From Gammaproteobacteria bacterium (lineage in GTDB: Bacteria > Pseudomonadota > Gammaproteobacteria > UBA4575): a stretch of DNA of 64,000 nucleotides. Shown in pieces: positions 18,928-49,278 of the stretch. Location: the NCBI GenBank assembly GCA_965222615.1, contig CBDCUI010000007.1, positions 416,001 to 480,000 on the forward strand, in the 5' to 3' direction. The first letter of the stretch is position 1. Each line of letters begins with the position of its first letter. Under the pieces are notes generated by a model, which was not told the DNA's origin, ran no database searches, and saw only the letters and a program-made list of their open reading frames with translations. The translations under genes were made by a program, and so were the position numbers.

Positions 18928-19677
18928 TCAGGCACAAAGTTTATAACCACGATGAATACAAACGAGTCCGCCAGATAAATTTATAAAATCACATTGTTCA
19001 AACCCTACATCTTCTAACATAGTTTGCAAAGTTTGTTGATCAGGGTGTTTACGAATAGACTCTGCTAAATATTTATAACTTTCTTCATCTTTGGCAATGA
19101 TTTTCCCCATACGCGGTAAAAGATTAAACGAGTAGTTATCATATAAAGCCTGCATCCACTTTTGCGGTTTGGAAAATTCCAGAATTAGTAATTGCCCACC
19201 TGGTTTAATTACACGAAAGATTGAACATAATGCTTGATCTTTGTCAGTAAAGTTACGTAATCCAAACGCAAGGGTTACCCGATCAAAATGATTTTCAGGG
19301 TAAGGCAAGTTCTCTGCATAACTTTGTACATAGAAAATATTTTTTAGCAAGCCTCGATCAATAAGACGATGCCGACCTTCTTCTAACATCGCGGCATTTG
19401 CATCACACATGATGACCATACCTCTATCATTCAACTTAGGTGCGAATGCTGCAGTAATGTCGCCAGTGCCCGCGGCTAAATCTAGAACTTGGTGGTCCGG
19501 CCGAATATTTGCAATATGGGTAAAATAACGCTTCCACATACGATGCATACCGAGTGACATGACATCATTCATGACATCGTATTTACCCGCCACCGAATCA
19601 AAAACCGCGCCTACCTTTTGCGTCTTTTCTTCAGGGCTTACGTCTTGATAGCCAAAGTGTGTGGTTTTATCAGGCAT
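18928..19677 (-). CDS. ubiE: Ubiquinone/menaquinone methyltransferase UbiE
   Basis: TTHFGYQ, YDVMNDVMSLG, LDLAAGTGD, YKYLAESI. Confidence 0.97.
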   Translation of the reverse strand: MPDKTTHFGYQDVSPEEKTQKVGAVFDSVAGKYDVMNDVMSLGMHRMWKRYFTHIANIRPDHQVLDLAAGTGDITAAFAPKLNDRGMVIMCDANAAMLEEGRHRLIDRGLLKNIFYVQSYAENLPYPENHFDRVTLAFGLRNFTDKDQALCSIFRVIKPGGQLLILEFSKPQKWMQALYDNYSFNLLPRMGKIIAKDEESYKYLAESIRKHPDQQTLQTMLEDVGFEQCDFINLSGGLVCIHRGYKLCA

Positions 19678-19813
19678 CTTAATCTAATGTCTTATTCTTC
19701 TAGTACTTACAGTTTAAACAAAATTAGCCTGTAATAGTGAATAAGATTTAATACTGCTAGGATTAGATTGTATTACGTCCTGTGAGGTTAAATTATATGA
19801 GGGATTTAACCCT

Positions 19814-19843
19814 TTATGATGCTTTCAACTAAAAGCGCACAAT
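19814..19843. repeat. 11-8-11 palindromic site (family P), left boundary of the small-gene array
   Basis: ttatgatgctt-tcaactaa-aagcgcacaat. Confidence 0.5.
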
Positions 19844-19884
19844 CAATATTAGGCTAAATAATTCATTCAAATAGAGTTTCTGAA

Positions 19885-20433
19885 ATGGGCAAAGTTTACG
19901 ACCAAATAGATTCTGACATGGCTAGTTGGATAAGGCAGCAGAAAGTATTTTTTGTTGCCACTGCCCCGTTGTCAGCGGACGGCCACATTAATTGTTCTCC
20001 TAAGGGTGGTGACACTTTCTACATAATTGATCCGCATACAATCGCTTACTTAGATTTTACAGGAAGTGGAATAGAAACAGTTGCTCACATCAAAGAAAAT
20101 AAACGAATACTTGTTATGTTTTGCGCTTTCGAAGGAGCACCAAAAATCTTACGTCTGCATGGCGAGGGAGAAGTTATTTTACCTGGTGATGTAGAGTATA
20201 AGAAATTAATTGAAAACTTCTCGCCATATAATGGCTCAAGATCAATCATTAAAGTTAATGTCAAACGCATTAGTGATGCATGTGGATTTGGCGTGCCGAT
20301 TATGCAATTCAAATCTCACAGAGATGACCTAAAACGTTGGGCCGAAACTAGAAGTACAGATGAACTTGCACAATTTCGTACTGATAAAAACATGATAAGT
20401 ATCGATGGACTACCAGGTCTTAACGAGAATTAA
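19885..20433 (+). CDS. Pyridoxamine 5'-phosphate oxidase-family FMN-binding protein
   Basis: FFVATAPL..GHINCSPKG, YLDFTGSGIET, FCAFEGAP, CGFGVP. Confidence 0.88.
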   Translation: MGKVYDQIDSDMASWIRQQKVFFVATAPLSADGHINCSPKGGDTFYIIDPHTIAYLDFTGSGIETVAHIKENKRILVMFCAFEGAPKILRLHGEGEVILPGDVEYKKLIENFSPYNGSRSIIKVNVKRISDACGFGVPIMQFKSHRDDLKRWAETRSTDELAQFRTDKNMISIDGLPGLNEN

Positions 20434-20458
20434 TGTATCGAATAACCCATATTAGGAA

Positions 20459-20488
20459 AAAGTCAGAATAATCATAAAAGTGCATTCT
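20459..20488. repeat. Degenerate family P site
   Basis: aaagtcagaat-aatcataa-aagtgcattct. Confidence 0.3.
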
Positions 20489-20499
20489 ATATAAAAAAT

Positions 20500-21024
20500 A
20501 TGAACAATTTATACAGCTCACCTGAAAGTGATGTGGCGTTAAATAAAGATGATGGCAAGTCATCTATGCTAGGTAATACCTTGGGTGAAACAATTAGTAA
20601 AGCACTTTTAATCTTAGAATTATTTTTTATAGTGCTACCTTTAAGCCTATTACTGATTATAGGTAGTAAAATAATTATTTTTGATATGTTTACATTTTAT
20701 TCTGAAGAAATTTATTATGAATTGCTCACAGCCTTTGTAATTTACTGTGCATTGGTTGCTGTACCTATTGGTTGGTATTTTGCTATTAAATTTTTAATTA
20801 AAGGCAGAAAGTCTTTAAAAAAGGATTCTATTATATTGTTCAGCATTCCAGTTATCGGCATGTTAACCCCCTTGCTACCTATATTTCATTCTTTAATTAA
20901 ACAATATTTTAATGCTCAACACGAAAACTATATGGATACGGTAGCTGATATAGCTCCCTTTGGTATATTCTTTGTTATACCATTTATTCACTTAGTTTTA
21001 GAATTTATATTTTCAAGACGTTAA
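20500..21024 (+). CDS. Hypothetical multi-TM protein with N-terminal NLYSSP motif
   Basis: 174 aa, about 4 TM segments, AT-rich. Confidence 0.7.
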   Translation: MNNLYSSPESDVALNKDDGKSSMLGNTLGETISKALLILELFFIVLPLSLLLIIGSKIIIFDMFTFYSEEIYYELLTAFVIYCALVAVPIGWYFAIKFLIKGRKSLKKDSIILFSIPVIGMLTPLLPIFHSLIKQYFNAQHENYMDTVADIAPFGIFFVIPFIHLVLEFIFSRR

Positions 21025-21053
21025 TAGTAGCTAACCCAGGTGATATTGAGAAA

Positions 21054-21083
21054 AATGTCAGCTTTGCGACTCAAGCTAACATA
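21054..21083. repeat. Family P 11-8-11 palindromic site
   Basis: aatgtcagctt-tgcgactc-aagctaacata (near-perfect inverted arms). Confidence 0.75.
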
Positions 21084-21321
21084 CAATTAAAACTATGTGC
21101 TATTTTCTGTCCTTAATTGCTACTCTCAATCTATAGCAGTAATTCAGTAGATACCATTGATTCAGTAAATTAGTCCTTATAGAGGCTATCTGCCTGAAAT
21201 GGCTTTATTCATCAGTATGATTTTTATCGGTTGGCTTAGATATTCATCAATTTATACCATAAGTAACTCGAATCTCTAGCTCATATGGAAATAGTTAAAA
21301 ACGATCAAGGAAGGTATCAAA

Positions 21322-21804
21322 ATGGGAAATATATTTAAAATTATCACATTCGTGTTGATTTTGTTGTCTCTTGCAGCTTGTAGTTTTGTTAAAGGAAAGG
21401 CGGAAGCCGAAAAACTCGCAGAAACTACATTTCAAGAAAGAATAAATCGTGGGGGCTTTGCTCATGATCGCTACTACTCAAAACTGTTTTGGGAAAATAC
21501 AGATGAGGCTGACTGGTCAAATATTAAAAAATTAGTAGCGAATGCTATGGGGGATCTTAAAAGCTATACACTCTCAACTTGGAATATTGAATCAAATATT
21601 AATACTAGTGATATTTCAGGAACGATCGTAATTTTACAATACGAAACAGAATATGAAAAAGGCAAAGGAATAGAGATCCTTACGCTTCACAAACCCCTCT
21701 CAGGCAAAAAGTTTACAATACTCGGACATAATTTTAATTCTGATAATATTCAAAAATATATTCAGAAAGGTATTGAGCAAGCTGCCTTAATTGAAAATTC
21801 TTAA
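21322..21804 (+). CDS. Hypothetical lipoprotein (DUF4019-like fold possible)
   Basis: Lipobox LAAC, AAGGAAGG SD; LQYETEYEKG..E..ILGHNFNS pattern. Confidence 0.7.
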   Translation: MGNIFKIITFVLILLSLAACSFVKGKAEAEKLAETTFQERINRGGFAHDRYYSKLFWENTDEADWSNIKKLVANAMGDLKSYTLSTWNIESNINTSDISGTIVILQYETEYEKGKGIEILTLHKPLSGKKFTILGHNFNSDNIQKYIQKGIEQAALIENS

Positions 21805-21897
21805 AGTACACAAGAAATAGAAGCTGATATTGAAACATTGCTTTTAATCAGAAACAGCTAATCGGTGAAAATTACTTACTCAATTTTTGAGGAGCCC

Positions 21898-22293
21898 ATG
21901 AAAACTTTAATCCCTACCCTACTCGTTATTTTCCTTACATCAGCTTTAGCTTTTGATGATGACCAAATCTTATTTGATAAAATTACAGGGATATGGCTTT
22001 TTGAAGCCTCTAATGGTGATATGTATATTAAAGCTACTGAAAATTATAAAAGTGATGGGACAATTGATACACATGGGAAAATTTACATAAAAGGTGAGCT
22101 GGTTGAAGAATATAAAGTAAAATCAAAATGGAATGTCATGGATGGTTACTCACATGTAGAAGTACTTGAATCAAATAATGATTATTTAAAACCAGGCCTT
22201 AAAATTACAGATAAAATTATCTCAGTGAATGACAAAGAATTTACATTTGAATCTGATGATGGAAAACAAACAACTATAATTCGAATTAAATGA
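21898..22293 (+). CDS. Hypothetical exported beta-rich protein
   Basis: GAGGAG SD before ATG 21898, signal peptide ending SALA, ITGIW lipocalin-like start. Confidence 0.7.
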   Translation: MKTLIPTLLVIFLTSALAFDDDQILFDKITGIWLFEASNGDMYIKATENYKSDGTIDTHGKIYIKGELVEEYKVKSKWNVMDGYSHVEVLESNNDYLKPGLKITDKIISVNDKEFTFESDDGKQTTIIRIK

Positions 22294-22323
22294 TTTATCC
22301 GCTAACGAACCAAAGCAAGCATT
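22294..22323. repeat. Family P 11-8-11 site
   Basis: tttatccgcta-acgaacca-aagcaagcatt directly after the stop codon. Confidence 0.55.
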
Positions 22324-22345
22324 CAATTCTAATTTCTAAATCAAA

Positions 22346-22753
22346 ATGGAAAACCCATATTCCTCACCTAAAAGTGAATTAGCTGGAAAGAGCATAAGTA
22401 AAAAAAAGAAGAAACCTATAGCTATATGGTTAACGTCAATTGTAGCAATTATCACCTCTCTGGCTATAGTATGGCGGGCTTACGAAACACAATGGTTGGC
22501 AGCTATCACATTTGCTTTACCATATTTGGTAGCTGGAATTGCCTTGATTATGAATAAAAGCTGGTCTCAATATATTTTTTATACTATGGCAGTAATAGGG
22601 ATAGGCGTATGGTTGTATGCTATCTACGGGTATCAAATATTAGAAAATCTAAATCAACTCAATGTCATGATAAGTTTAATTCCTGGGGTGTTATTTGTTA
22701 TTGTAAATATTGGAATAGTGTCTGTTGTTTATAGACATTTTCATGAGTCTTAA
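22346..22753 (+). CDS. Hypothetical four-TM protein with N-terminal NPYSSP motif
   Basis: 135 aa, four hydrophobic helices, AT-rich. Confidence 0.7.
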   Translation: MENPYSSPKSELAGKSISKKKKKPIAIWLTSIVAIITSLAIVWRAYETQWLAAITFALPYLVAGIALIMNKSWSQYIFYTMAVIGIGVWLYAIYGYQILENLNQLNVMISLIPGVLFVIVNIGIVSVVYRHFHES

Positions 22754-22795
22754 ATGACCACTTATGACTGCCGATCACAGCCGAAAGCGGCCACT
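22753..22795. repeat. Family P site with expanded spacer, right boundary of the array
   Basis: aatgaccactt-atgactgccgatcacagccga-aagcggccact. Confidence 0.65.
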
Positions 22796-22804
22796 TTAAA
22801 TACA

Positions 22805-23170
22805 CTAATCTATACCTTTTCTTTCGTACCCTGCTTCTTTCAATCTTTCTAAATATTTAAGCCAGTTGGTTTCTTTATTTATTCCCAAATTATATAGATG
22901 ATCCCAGGAATAAATGCCTGAATCGTGATTATCATCAAATACGAGTTGTACGGCATAGTTGCCAACTGGATTAATGGCCGTGATGTTTACATCTTCCTTG
23001 CCTACTTGAAGTACTTCTTGTCCGGGACCATGACCTTGTACTTCTGCAGAGGGTGAATGCGTGCGCAAATATTCGCAAGTGAGTTCAAAATGTTGCCCAT
23101 CATCAAATTCTATTTCCAAAATTTTGGATTTTTGATGTAGCTCAATCTTTGTCGGAGTTGCAATTGCCAT
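22805..23170 (-). CDS. DUF971 / gamma-butyrobetaine hydroxylase-like N-terminal domain protein
   Basis: EYLRTHSPSAEVQGHG, PVGNYAV..FDDNHDSGIYSW; usual hslU-DUF971-ubiE synteny. Confidence 0.92.
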   Translation of the reverse strand: MAIATPTKIELHQKSKILEIEFDDGQHFELTCEYLRTHSPSAEVQGHGPGQEVLQVGKEDVNITAINPVGNYAVQLVFDDNHDSGIYSWDHLYNLGINKETNWLKYLERLKEAGYERKGID

Positions 23171-25374: not shown

Positions 25375-26328
25375 TTATTCGTCGTTTGACTTGGGATCGT
25401 CTGCTTGGTGCGCCTTTTTAGCGCGAGGGTGAGTACTATCATAAACCTGAGCAAGATGTTGAAAATCTAAGTGAGTATAGATTTGTGTAGTGCTAATGTC
25501 GGCGTGGCCAAGCATTTCCTGTACTGCTCGAAGATCACCACTGGACTCTAATAAATGACTAGCAAAGGAATGACGTAACATGTGTGGGTGTACATGTTTC
25601 TCTAAGCCTTGTTCTCTACCAAGCTGTGCCATACGTTGTTGTACGGCACGTGGTGATAAGCGTTTACCGCGGTTATTGACGAATACGGCAATTTCATCTT
25701 CCGCCGCAATATTCGGGCGCGCATCCAGCCAACGTCTTAATGCCTTACAAGCTTCTGTACCAATGGGCAAATAACGTGATTTATTGCCTTTACCGTGTAC
25801 ATGTACTTGGCCATGCGCTAAATCAACCATGTCAAGATTTAGATCAACTAATTCCGCCAATCGCAAACCTGATGAATACATTAACTCCATCATGGCGTAA
25901 TCACGTAATTTAAGCGGATTTTGCGGGCCTTCAGTTAACAAGCGATTAATTTCATCTACATCCAGTAGATCGGGTAATTTTTTCTCGATACTTGGCGCAC
26001 TTACATCCGCAACGGGATTGTTCTCCACCAAGTCTTCACGTTGCAAAAAATTATAAAATCTCCTGATCGCACTCAAACAACGATGTAGGCTACGTGCCGA
26101 TACGCCACGACGGCGCCGGGAACCGGCAAAGTTCCTTACATGCAAGCTATCTACCTCACAACAATCAGTAACATTGATGGCTTGTAGAAATTCTGCAAAT
26201 TGCAATATATCGTGCTGATAAGCTTCTATAGTTGCAATGGAGTATCTACGCTCATCACGCAGATAACGCAAATAACGATCGAGGAGTTCTTGAGTGGTTG
26301 CTGGACTCGTAACTATTGCCATAAACAC
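25375..26328 (-). CDS. xerC: Tyrosine recombinase XerC
   Basis: GLRLAEL, GKGNK, HPHMLRHSFASH, LGHADISTTQIYTHLDFQHL; dapF-DUF484-xerC synteny. Confidence 0.96.
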   Translation of the reverse strand: MFMAIVTSPATTQELLDRYLRYLRDERRYSIATIEAYQHDILQFAEFLQAINVTDCCEVDSLHVRNFAGSRRRRGVSARSLHRCLSAIRRFYNFLQREDLVENNPVADVSAPSIEKKLPDLLDVDEINRLLTEGPQNPLKLRDYAMMELMYSSGLRLAELVDLNLDMVDLAHGQVHVHGKGNKSRYLPIGTEACKALRRWLDARPNIAAEDEIAVFVNNRGKRLSPRAVQQRMAQLGREQGLEKHVHPHMLRHSFASHLLESSGDLRAVQEMLGHADISTTQIYTHLDFQHLAQVYDSTHPRAKKAHQADDPKSNDE

Positions 26329-47932: not shown

Positions 47933-48868
47933 ATGCTTAATCGTTTTAATTTCTTATTTCCAATTTGGGCAATATTACTCTCTGTTGTTGCTTACTTAAA
48001 TCCAGAAATATTTATCCCACTAAAACCAAGCATTATCTATCTTTTAGCTATCGTAATGTTTGGCATGGGGATAACACTTAAACCAAAAGACTTTCTTCAG
48101 CTTGCTAAATTGAAAACTATTCTTCTAGTGGGCTTAGCATTACAGTTTCTAATTATGCCGCTGGCTGCTTGGTTAATTAGCCTTGGTTTCAGTCTTACCA
48201 CCCCTCTACTTACCGGTATGGTTTTAGTGGGTGCCTGTCCTGGCGGTACTGCGTCTAATGTGATTTGTTATTTGGCGCGTGGCAATGTTGCACTTTCGAT
48301 TGCACTGACTACAGCTTCTACTTTACTCGCCGTGCTTGCAACGCCATTATTTACTTGGCTTTATCTGGGTCAGAGTGTAGATGTTCCTTTACTACGCATG
48401 ATGTATACCGTACTTCAAGTGATCGTTTTACCAGTAAGCATAGGTGTATTGATTAATTATTTTTTTGGAGAACGCATAGCACCTATTACTCGATTCTTTC
48501 CAAGTGTCTCAGTGATTTTTATTTGTATAATTATCGCGATTATTGCCGCAAGCAACCATACCAAGCTACATAGTATTGCAGCTATAGTAGTCGTAGCGGT
48601 TATGCTGCATAATTTTGTTGGGCTGCTTATTGGCTACTTGGTAAGCTACTTACTTGGCTATGACAAAACCATACGAAAAACCATTGCTATAGAAGTGGGA
48701 ATGCAAAATTCAGGCCTAGCTGTAGCCTTAGCGATAGAATATTTCAAGCCACTTGCAGCTTTGCCTGGCGCAGTTTTCTCAATATGGCATAATCTATCAG
48801 GAGCCTTGCTTGCAGTAATTTGGTCTAAACAAACAAAGAATAAAACTACTAACGGATTCGAATCATGA
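47933..48868 (+). CDS. Bile acid:Na+ symporter family protein (PanS/YocS-like)
   Basis: MFGMG, CPGGTASNV, IEVGMQNSGL, IWHN. Confidence 0.93.
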   Translation: MLNRFNFLFPIWAILLSVVAYLNPEIFIPLKPSIIYLLAIVMFGMGITLKPKDFLQLAKLKTILLVGLALQFLIMPLAAWLISLGFSLTTPLLTGMVLVGACPGGTASNVICYLARGNVALSIALTTASTLLAVLATPLFTWLYLGQSVDVPLLRMMYTVLQVIVLPVSIGVLINYFFGERIAPITRFFPSVSVIFICIIIAIIAASNHTKLHSIAAIVVVAVMLHNFVGLLIGYLVSYLLGYDKTIRKTIAIEVGMQNSGLAVALAIEYFKPLAALPGAVFSIWHNLSGALLAVIWSKQTKNKTTNGFES

Positions 48869-49158
48869 CATTAAACACTTCCATTTCCTTTTTCAGTGCT
48901 TTGATAAGTTGGGCACTAGCCATTTTTTTAGTTACTCAATTATTATCTGGTACGTTTGATACGCGTACTTGTCAAACTACATGTGTAAACGTCTTGTTTT
49001 GGATGTCGTTTGCAATTGCCGTGATAGGGCTAGTTTTTAGCATCGGTGGAATATCGATTGGCCAGTCTAGCCGAATAAAAACGATTTCGATACTTGCACT
49101 GCTTGGTTTATGCGGAATTTATGCAACGACCATGTTCATCGGCACCTTCGGTATCTAG
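48865..49158 (+). CDS. Small three-TM hypothetical protein
   Basis: 97 aa, hydrophobic, CQTTC; followed by a family P site. Confidence 0.65.
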   Translation: MTLNTSISFFSALISWALAIFLVTQLLSGTFDTRTCQTTCVNVLFWMSFAIAVIGLVFSIGGISIGQSSRIKTISILALLGLCGIYATTMFIGTFGI

Positions 49159-49191
49159 AAATACTCAAAATCAAACGTATAGTTAATTCTA

Positions 49192-49233
49192 AATGTCCGC
49201 TTACGACTGTGATTTCAACCGAAAGTGGTCTTT
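49192..49233. repeat. Family P site with expanded spacer
   Basis: aatgtccgctt-acgactgtgatttcaaccga-aagtggtcttt. Confidence 0.65.
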
Positions 49234-49278
49234 CATTTTTTTATTAACTATTGATCAAACTATCTCTTGACTTCCCAT

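Follow-up and report, generated by a model that had tools for sequence, protein, structure and literature searches.

Small accessory genes and a family of polar palindromes in the ubiE-DUF971 gap of an uncultured gammaproteobacterium

Why do five small genes stand between ubiE and DUF971, which lie close together in most related loci, and what are the palindromes at their boundaries? The locus belongs to a 64-kb stretch of DNA, hereafter the window (G000:C7:416001-480000), of the genome G000, which comprises 3.10 Mb in 9 contigs with 39% GC. A preliminary description, made from the letters of the window, had proposed that these genes (genes 1 to 5, in order along the plus strand) are single-gene cassettes separated by palindromes with 11-base arms and an 8-base spacer, captured by a recombinase acting in trans, with no integrase alongside. 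We compared the window with the other members of an uncultured gammaproteobacterial family (56 genomes, that is G000 and 55 others). Searches for homologs of the window genes covered the 55 other genomes, the synteny survey covered 15 related loci, and the statistics of sites and open reading frames (ORFs) were obtained from 412 kb of relatives' loci containing 111 sites. The reading that we prefer, with modest confidence, is that the five genes represent an array in decay, built of mobile units (a gene plus its sites) that would be moved by a recombinase in trans. When only the window is considered, the evidence for the palindromes looks thin; it is the relatives that make the case.

A polar palindrome and its gene units in related genomes

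Two models of the site were used. Model (a) is a half-site matrix derived from 18 flanks of the ends of insertion sequences (IS) and miniature inverted-repeat transposable elements (MITEs) elsewhere in G000, and model (b) is a hidden Markov model (HMM) trained on 88 sites from relatives. With model (a), inverted half-sites 4-12 nt apart were counted as pairs, and everted and direct pairs served as controls. Across the G000 genome, 20 inverted pairs reached a score of at least 20, compared to 4 everted and 3 direct pairs, and at a score of at least 24 the numbers were 10 and zero in both controls. Inverted pairs were thus far more frequent than either control. The best sites under model (a) had a spacer of 8 nt, which occurred in two conserved forms never seen by the matrix.

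Each site consists of inverted arms of 11-12 bases around a polar 8-base spacer, and there are two types, A and T. In the set of 88 sites, the A-type consensus reads AATG(A/T)C(C/T)GCT, followed by the spacer region AACGACCCA and then AAGCGGACATT, and the T-type consensus reads AATGACCGCT, followed by the spacer region (A/T)TTGGCCGA and then AAGC(A/G)GACATT. A strict version of the pattern (at most 1 mismatch) was present in 34 of the 56 family genomes in 1-184 copies, whereas the control, the same pattern read backwards, was present in none of the 56. Strict copies numbered 184 in G039, 175 in G006, 110 in G002, 7 in G000, 6 in G001 and a single one in G063; three genera had no strict sites. 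The sequence of the site, with both spacer types, is conserved across at least eight genera, and Rfam holds no family matching either the sites or their doublets. The palindrome is a family-wide element of this uncultured gammaproteobacterial family, and the palindromes of the window belong to a family of polar sites with the very geometry first described for them.

The arrangement of the sites is most regular in the arrays of G032 and G007. There, an A site, an ORF, a T site on the stop codon, a linker of ~50 nt and the next A site with its ORF follow one another repeatedly; each array holds about seven successive co-oriented small ORFs, every one preceded by an A site and with a T site at its stop. 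The T-linker-A doublets are about 113-115 nt long and 70-83% alike, with a pitch of 59, 73 or 83 in intact doublets, and a doublet forms one long hairpin through pairing of its T and A sites (-31.5 kcal/mol, z -4.4). Within an array the sites keep the polarity of the gene, as judged by their 8-base spacers, and do not alternate; this single-polarity call is not absolute, because T and A spacers are partly complementary. Of all 111 sites, 58 lay in the interval from -15 to +150 nt relative to the end of an ORF with the same orientation, compared to 26 when the sites were flipped. An intact unit consists of a single small ORF, an A palindrome about 25-50 nt upstream of its start codon, and a T palindrome that covers the stop codon or follows it directly. 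Both 8-base spacers are oriented like the gene, and the T of one unit, the ~50-nt linker and the A of the next together form the imperfect hairpin of ~115 nt. The architecture observed is that of co-oriented cassettes, each with one ORF and a structured repeat, whose content varies between relatives.

The sites are associated with accessory genes. In the G006 loci, a G000 homolog was found for 17 of the 58 ORFs located no more than 200 nt from a site, compared to 132 of the 175 ORFs farther away. The cargo of the G006 arrays includes sulfatases, cupins, RRM, OsmC, DJ-1, MerR and HMA proteins and many unknowns. Two blocks in G006 are bounded by sites, and their orthologs in G000 have other neighbours and no sites.

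The same units recur in different contexts. Homologs of gene 1 were present in 4 of the 55 genomes (G063, G017, G043 and G001), always at another locus. In G063, a complete A-gene 1-T unit stands between core genes, despite there being only one strict site in that genome; in G017 both sites are decayed, in G043 only the T site is present, and in G001 there is none. Gene 4 has homologs in 8 of the 55 genomes, again at other loci. In G039 and G038 a T-linker-A doublet precedes this gene, and the left arm of the 3' site contains the stop codon; in G033 a remnant of a site was seen, and no site in G043, G006, G001, G015 and G048. G039 and G038 are 88% identical over a stretch that opens with the first base of the T site, takes in the linker, the A site and the gene itself, and breaks off halfway through the 3' site; outside it the two show no homology. 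The position of the site at the stop codon is kept even between homologs that are merely 39-52% identical. For gene 5, homologs were found in 2 of the 55 genomes, namely G032 and G007, and in both the unit lies within the regular arrays described above, which have only this unit in common. A further cassette of G006 matches G033 by 84%, and the match is confined between the two flanking sites.

Genes 1, 4 and 5 thus have homologs that stand alone at different loci in other genomes and are bounded by the same sites, and what G039 and G038 have in common stops at a site or within one. The proposed picture is therefore upheld: units of one gene each, marked off by a repeated boundary site, with no integrase beside them. 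We also looked in genus g3 for the empty locus of the gene-1 unit; among its 5 genomes the flanking gene was present only in G059, where the locus is rearranged, and there was no clean empty site. Immediately beyond the G007 array that carries the gene-5 homolog there is a transfer RNA (tRNA) gene (L173:1301-1374 in G007:C1, Rfam 74.6 bits).

The main alternative is that the palindromes resemble repetitive extragenic palindromic (REP) sequences and their hairpin-forming doublets (REPINs), multiplying by themselves in intergenic DNA and perhaps acting as 3' stem-loops or terminators. The genes of hot spots would then turn over by other means, and the repeats would accumulate where they are tolerated. 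Short palindromes in inverted doublets of fixed pitch are the layout of REPINs, and the sites studied here are likewise short extragenic palindromes forming inverted doublets of pitch 59, 73 or 83 that fold as one hairpin. In PMC3390384, a spacing of 60-70 bp is given for REP doublets of Pseudomonas. The existence of two sequence variants is a further feature that the sites share with REPs and bacterial interspersed mosaic elements (BIMEs). REPs are also preferred IS targets, as the present sites are, and E. coli BIMEs are reported beside strain-specific loops (PMC1525189). The copy number of the site varies widely between genera, some sites in G006 come after conserved genes that have no site in G000, DNA between doublets in G001 contains little or no ORF, and no enzyme was found that would move the units.

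Nevertheless, we regard this alternative as rather unlikely. The genomes with the highest copy numbers lack the transposase typical of such repeats, the REP-associated tyrosine transposase (RAYT). The sites track accessory genes, not the older core, which is the reverse of the situation in Pseudomonas, whose REP deserts are the place of genes specific to a strain (PMC3390384). Moreover, the sites have a strict polarity with the gene, keep their position at the stop codon between distant homologs and travel with genes between genera. The complete unit of G063 in a genome with a single strict site, and the conservation of both spacer types over at least eight genera, likewise argue against repeats that spread on their own.

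Degenerate sites of the window in a turnover hot spot

The five genes occupy a 3.1-kb interval on the plus strand and run opposite to their neighbours, which are all on the minus strand: uvrD, ubiB, a ubiJ-like gene and ubiE on one side, and the DUF971 gene, hslU, hslV and xerC on the other. The GC content of the five-gene interval is 0.30-0.34, compared to 0.38-0.48 in the flanks, so that the account of five co-oriented, AT-rich genes opposed to their surroundings proved accurate. The order hslU-DUF971-ubiE, said to be normally contiguous, is kept in 15 of the 15 related loci, and the gap between DUF971 and ubiE measures 36-222 bp in 11 of them. The palindrome is absent from these short gaps, even in G002 with its 110 strict sites elsewhere. 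Expansion is seen in the clade of the window: the gap measures 3.1 kb in G000, 6.4 kb in G001, 3.2 kb in G006, 1.1 kb in G007 and 2.2 kb in G014, and 0.4-2.9 kb in further genomes of genus g7. The expanded gaps of different genomes are filled with mutually unrelated ORFs, and 9 of the 13 expanded intervals contain at least one site. The ubiE-DUF971 gap is a hot spot of gene turnover in this clade. Its contents differed between species, and none of the five window genes was found there in any relative compared.

Gene 1 (19885..20433) encodes an FMN-binding protein of 182 aa resembling PNPOx (Pfam PNPOx_N, E 1e-10). Gene 2 (20500..21024) encodes a membrane protein of 174 aa without a Pfam family, and gene 3 (21322..21804) a lipoprotein-like protein of 160 aa, whose match to DUF4019 is below threshold; neither has a homolog in the 55 other genomes. 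The products of gene 4 (21898..22293), a secreted protein of 131 aa, and gene 5 (22346..22753), a membrane protein of 135 aa, belong to no Pfam family. All five genes are on the plus strand. The left flank of the hot spot is formed by ubiE (18928..19677, minus strand; Pfam Ubie_methyltran, E 3.8e-85), with conserved synteny in 15 of 15 loci, and the right flank by the conserved DUF971 gene (22805..23170, minus strand; Pfam GBBH-like_N, E 4.1e-33).

The preliminary description had placed six sites in the array, and these proved to be of unequal quality. Its own 11-8-11 pattern, with up to 3 mismatches, had one match in the window, at 21054 with 2 mismatches, where 0.00 were expected (100 shuffles); an inverted-repeat search of the array had none of the claimed sites among the longest 25 of 27 repeats. 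By score, the sites at 21054, 22294 and 22753 are upheld; the one at 19814 is upheld by homology only, and that at 21821 is a half-site. The site at 20459 is not supported. Coordinates of sites are given on the plus strand.

The first of them (19814..19844) is an A-type site 41 nt before the ATG of gene 1, which fails both models with a score of -0.6 under model (a) and 3.4 bits under the HMM. In G063, however, the gene-1 homolog is preceded by an intact A site and a leader to which this site and the 41 nt up to the start codon can be aligned, and we therefore consider it real but decayed. Between genes 1 and 2, the weak site (20459..20490) was supported neither by model (a), where it lacks a top pair score, nor by the HMM (no nhmmer match at E<=100), nor by folding (z -0.3). 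After gene 2 there is a 12-8-12 palindrome (21053..21084) with family-like arms and a divergent spacer; its arm score of 20.7 ranks 19th in the genome, and under the HMM trained on relatives it reaches only 5.8 bits. A second weak palindrome (21114..21145, pair score 10.3) lies 61 nt past it and is possibly the remnant of a T-linker-A doublet, given the pitch of 61 compared to 59, 73 and 83 in intact doublets.

Upstream of gene 4, a right-arm half-site (21821..21832) with a half-site score of 10.4 has no left arm. It is here that the G039 and G038 units lead one to expect an A site, although the spacing to the ATG is 77 nt instead of about 37 nt. An A-type site (22293..22324) begins at the stop codon of gene 4, with a pair score of 14.1 and 7 of 8 spacer bases fitting the consensus. 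The corresponding HMM match at 22298 scored 14.0 bits, with an E of 1.4e-4 in the 3.7-kb region and 0.12 genome-wide, and 11 of 400 random 3.7-kb segments reached 14 bits. Its position relative to the stop codon is that seen in G039 and G038, with 5 extra bases in the window.

The site that abuts the stop codon of gene 5 (22752..22796) is of the T type, and its arms (scores 12.5 on the left and 12.9 on the right) are 21 nt apart. It is placed at the stop codon like the T site of the gene-5 homologs in G032 and G007. Of the extra 13 nt, 11 match the tips of the MITE (7 bases of its beginning and 4 of its end) and 2 remain; together they may be the scar of a lost IS30-type insertion with a 2-nt duplication. 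On the minus strand this site folds well (-24.3 kcal/mol, z -5.0).

A further copy had been noted at 49192, after an orphan gene. This gene is a membrane ORF of 97 aa (48865..49158, plus strand), and it is followed by a family site (49191..49238) whose left arm matches the query exactly and which contains an 11-12 nt remnant resembling an IS30-type end, followed by a T run. The HMM gave an E of 0.059 genome-wide, and the plus strand folds with -15 kcal/mol (z -3.4). A 19-base piece of this site, with at most 3 mismatches, has 10 matches in the genome, several running into common sequence that belongs to the MITE and the IS30-family element treated below. The copy at 49192 is a true family member.

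Could the recurrence in the window nevertheless be a chance likeness among AT-rich terminator hairpins that share no history? The reader's pattern is matched by only one of the six array sites, the palindromes at 21054 and 22294 fold as RNA no better than shuffled sequences (z -0.5 and -0.3), and half-sites by themselves occur at about the chance rate. Unpaired half-sites in G000 numbered 359 and 464, compared to ~390 expected by a hand estimate; for this reason the idea of a DNA uptake sequence was also dropped. On the other side stand the excess of paired sites over the controls, the agreement with the family of spacer letters that lie outside the model, the local HMM match with its E of 1.4e-4, and the flanking homology with intact sites in other genomes. 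Chance likeness is thus highly improbable, and this explanation is already largely refuted. As to intrinsic terminators, terminator-like calls in the 3.7-kb region numbered 1, compared to 1.8 expected, the one being on the minus strand at 21055-21082; a T run follows the 49192 site, and intact sites end in only 2-3 T.

Some minor features of the interval should be mentioned. The only ORF common to the gaps of different genomes is a small membrane gene adjoining ubiE. It encodes 60-81 aa and was seen in G001, G014, G038, G040 and G043; G000 lacks it (window 19677-19885), and ~100 bp of the ubiE-proximal DNA are still alike. An N-x-Y-S-S-P motif is present at the N-terminus of the products of both gene 2 (20500-20520) and gene 5 (22346-22366). 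No relatedness of these genes to each other or to any Pfam family was detected, although no direct comparison of the two was made.

How the units may move, and known systems

In the mechanism that we favour, gene-plus-site units would move between arrays, hot spots and genera, the ubiE-DUF971 gap being one such hot spot, and would be gained or lost by recombination at the sites through an enzyme acting in trans. Homologous recombination between the ~113-115-bp repeats would be the fallback mechanism. In G000 the system would be nearly dead, with few sites left and those of the window degenerate. The architecture and its distribution, the occurrence of the same unit in different contexts, the association with accessory genes and the targeting by IS elements are observed; that the sites are points of recombination and that a dedicated enzyme exists is what we infer.

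Several observations weigh against this mechanism. Homologs without sites make up 5 of the 8 for gene 4 and 1 of the 4 for gene 1, there is no ORF end just upstream of 42 of the 111 sites, and in G006 well-conserved genes are also followed by sites. The expanded intervals of G033, G038, G040 and G043 contain no detectable site. In the window itself, one of the claimed sites (20459) failed every test, and two others do not fold better than shuffles. Breakpoints at the repeats are expected from homologous recombination just as well. Three public runs, which consist of contigs of a single study that probably also gave rise to the assembly, cover the array; they contain neither an excised or deleted form nor any joint, indel or variant. 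Since contigs drop rare forms, they are uninformative on excision.

The search for an enzyme adds to these points. Among RAYT, IS30-type transposase, integron integrase and tyrosine recombinases, no candidate had a distribution over the family genomes that fits the sites. RAYT (PF01797) was present in 8 of the 56 genomes, with no match in G006, G039, G031, G043, G032 and G007, and IS30-type transposase in 5 of the 56. An integron integrase above the cut-off was found in 5 of the 56 (G000, G002, G040, G053 and G056) and was missing from G006, G039, G031, G043, G032, G007 and G014; among the genomes with at least 97 strict sites, only G002 has one. As their phyletic patterns do not fit those of the sites, the IS30-type transposase, RAYT and IntI were discarded as the spreading enzyme. 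The tyrosine recombinase acting in trans that the preliminary description had postulated, by geometry alone, was not identified. Nor was a recombinase gene present in the site-rich G006 arrays, whose sole mobility gene is one IS6-type transposase. A tyrosine-recombinase gene does lie near the window's array, namely xerC, but this is the ordinary conserved gene.

Considering that arms of 11 bases with a short spacer are a Xer-like geometry, the host's own XerC and XerD might use the sites, as in the dif modules of Acinetobacter plasmids, and xerC (25375..26328, minus strand), 2.6 kb from the array, would then be relevant. In favour of this, XerC and XerD are, apart from a 411-aa integrase, the only tyrosine recombinases of the site-rich G032; its total of three is no more than the 2-5 of five site-free genomes, which weighs against the mechanism that we favour. 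According to PMC13141974, dif modules are a known module system without an integrase and are shuffled between replicons. However, the site-free genomes also have XerC and XerD, the xerC gene is at the equivalent place in 12 of the 15 related loci irrespective of gap expansion (the other 3 lie outside the stretch compared), and the sites of an array have one polarity and do not alternate. The arms of the one good dif candidate in G000 (C9:261058, minus strand) are unrelated to the palindrome; with a single candidate, located by a short motif, this is a weak test. We therefore give the Xer explanation very little credence. Similarities to the Acinetobacter dif modules remain: small gene modules, 11-base arms, a short spacer and no recombinase gene in the module. 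The units described here differ in being chromosomal, in their 8-base spacer and single polarity, in arms unlike the candidate dif, and in belonging to another bacterial group.

The claim that no integrase accompanies the array is correct for the 64-kb window, in which no integron-type integrase was found; for the genome it is not, since G000 carries a classical integron on another contig. Its integrase (C9:397324-398262, plus strand), the only integron-type one in the genome, scored 490.5 bits, compared to a cut-off of 265, and adjoins an array of about 24 minus-strand ORFs (C9:380.3-397.2 kb), many with classical attC sites between them. IS1111-type elements are known to sit in attC sites. 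The palindromes might therefore be unusual attC sites served in trans by this integrase, and the five genes an outpost similar to the clusters of attC sites lacking integrases (CALINs), an explanation to which the attC-like two-part hairpin of the doublet and an IS110-family element in the sites would also lend themselves. This is most improbable, since the integrase is missing from seven of the genomes named above, and the attC sites of G000 share no sequence with the palindromes when compared by eye.

The likeness to integron arrays in general is nevertheless considerable. In both, small, diverse and mostly promoter-poor ORFs are co-oriented, an imperfect palindromic repeat of ~115 nt with two simple sites lies at the stop codon, the content differs between relatives, and the same cassette is found in different arrays; arrays without an adjacent integrase, as in CALINs, and insertion of an IS110-family element in the repeat are further common features. 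The differences concern the repeat, which is unlike the attC of G000, the absence of the integrase from most site-rich genomes, the lack of an attI site or a cassette promoter (Pc) among the features identified here, and the occurrence of arrays at many loci including gaps between core genes.

More tentatively, and with less conviction than we have in the array itself, we suggest that the family may possess a gene-cassette system of a third kind, in addition to those of integrons and dif modules. Single small genes would lie between two heterospecific, polar, lox-like sites, T and A together forming an attC-like hairpin, in many chromosomal arrays with exchange between genera, and the enzyme in trans would be neither the integron integrase nor RAYT and probably not Xer; the window would then be a dying outpost. 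No description of such arrays was found in the literature searched, which is weak evidence of novelty, as published tables of REP consensus sequences were outside that search.

If a dedicated enzyme moves the units, they would constitute a new platform for gene capture with a compact, defined pair of sites and a recombinase to be found, and a large natural pool of cassettes in uncultured marine-type Gammaproteobacteria. On a more modest reading, the sites would be a REP-like family without RAYT that marks the flexible rather than the core genome, and a precise target shared by two unrelated IS families, hence a clean natural setting in which to study how IS30-type and RNA-guided IS110-type elements choose their targets. 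In any case, the 30-base site is a simple annotation marker for islets of accessory genes in these genomes.

Insertion sequences in the sites

In G000, the sites that remain are specifically targeted by three elements: one of the IS30 family, the MITE that goes with it, and one of the IS110 family. The first is ~1.26 kb long (C9:256819-258046 and C7:815452-816662) and is assigned to the IS30 family because its 386-aa transposase carries HTH_38 and rve domains. A MITE of ~285 bp, derived from this element, is present in 5 complete copies (C9:926717-927000, 266285-266568, 787113-787394 and 675288-675567; C8:4381-4667) and 1 partial copy, with interiors 97-100% identical over ~250 bp.

Half-sites flank 18 of 18 IS30-type or MITE ends in G000. 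From one copy to another, roughly one base in four of these flanks is different, but the left and right flanks of any given copy pair with each other, and the arms are therefore the target of the insertion and not part of the element. The opposite assignment, that the outer arms are the inverted repeat of the IS30-type element itself, was rejected on the same grounds, as the interiors are nearly identical while the arms vary. The IS30-type element has the ends TG...CA; in 4 of the 5 complete MITE copies, insertion has split the spacer in the middle and duplicated 2 nt. Members of the same IS30 clade in G040, G053 and G050 are likewise flanked by half-sites, with a duplication also in G053. This is the behaviour of IS30 itself, which inserts at the central 2 bp of near-palindromic hot spots with a 2-bp duplication, as stated in PMC9333248.

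The IS110-family element is ~1.36 kb long, encodes a DEDD transposase of 347 aa, and occurs at C8:465-1850, C7:816753-818138, C7:820791-822176 and C9:253713-255096. In 4 of 4 copies examined it sits at a fixed point of A-type sites, which is similar to the REP targeting by IS110/IS1111 elements. Elements of the IS110/IS1111 type are RNA-guided. These likenesses bear on the elements that make use of the sites and not on the nature of the sites themselves. The IS families listed as REP-targeting in PMC1525189 are IS3, IS110, IS4, IS256 and IS5; the IS30 family is not among these five, in which the present sites differ.

The candidate dif at C9:261058 lies within a few kb of copies of the IS110- and IS30-family elements (C9:253-260 kb). 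Three further copies in G000 (C8:548453-549831, C9:660233-661183 and C7:251045-251995) show the same match and score and thus represent one second, distant IS30-like element, with a 332-aa frame that is 37% identical to the IS30-type transposase. Its C8 copy adjoins the only gene for a Y1 (RAYT-like) transposase in G000.

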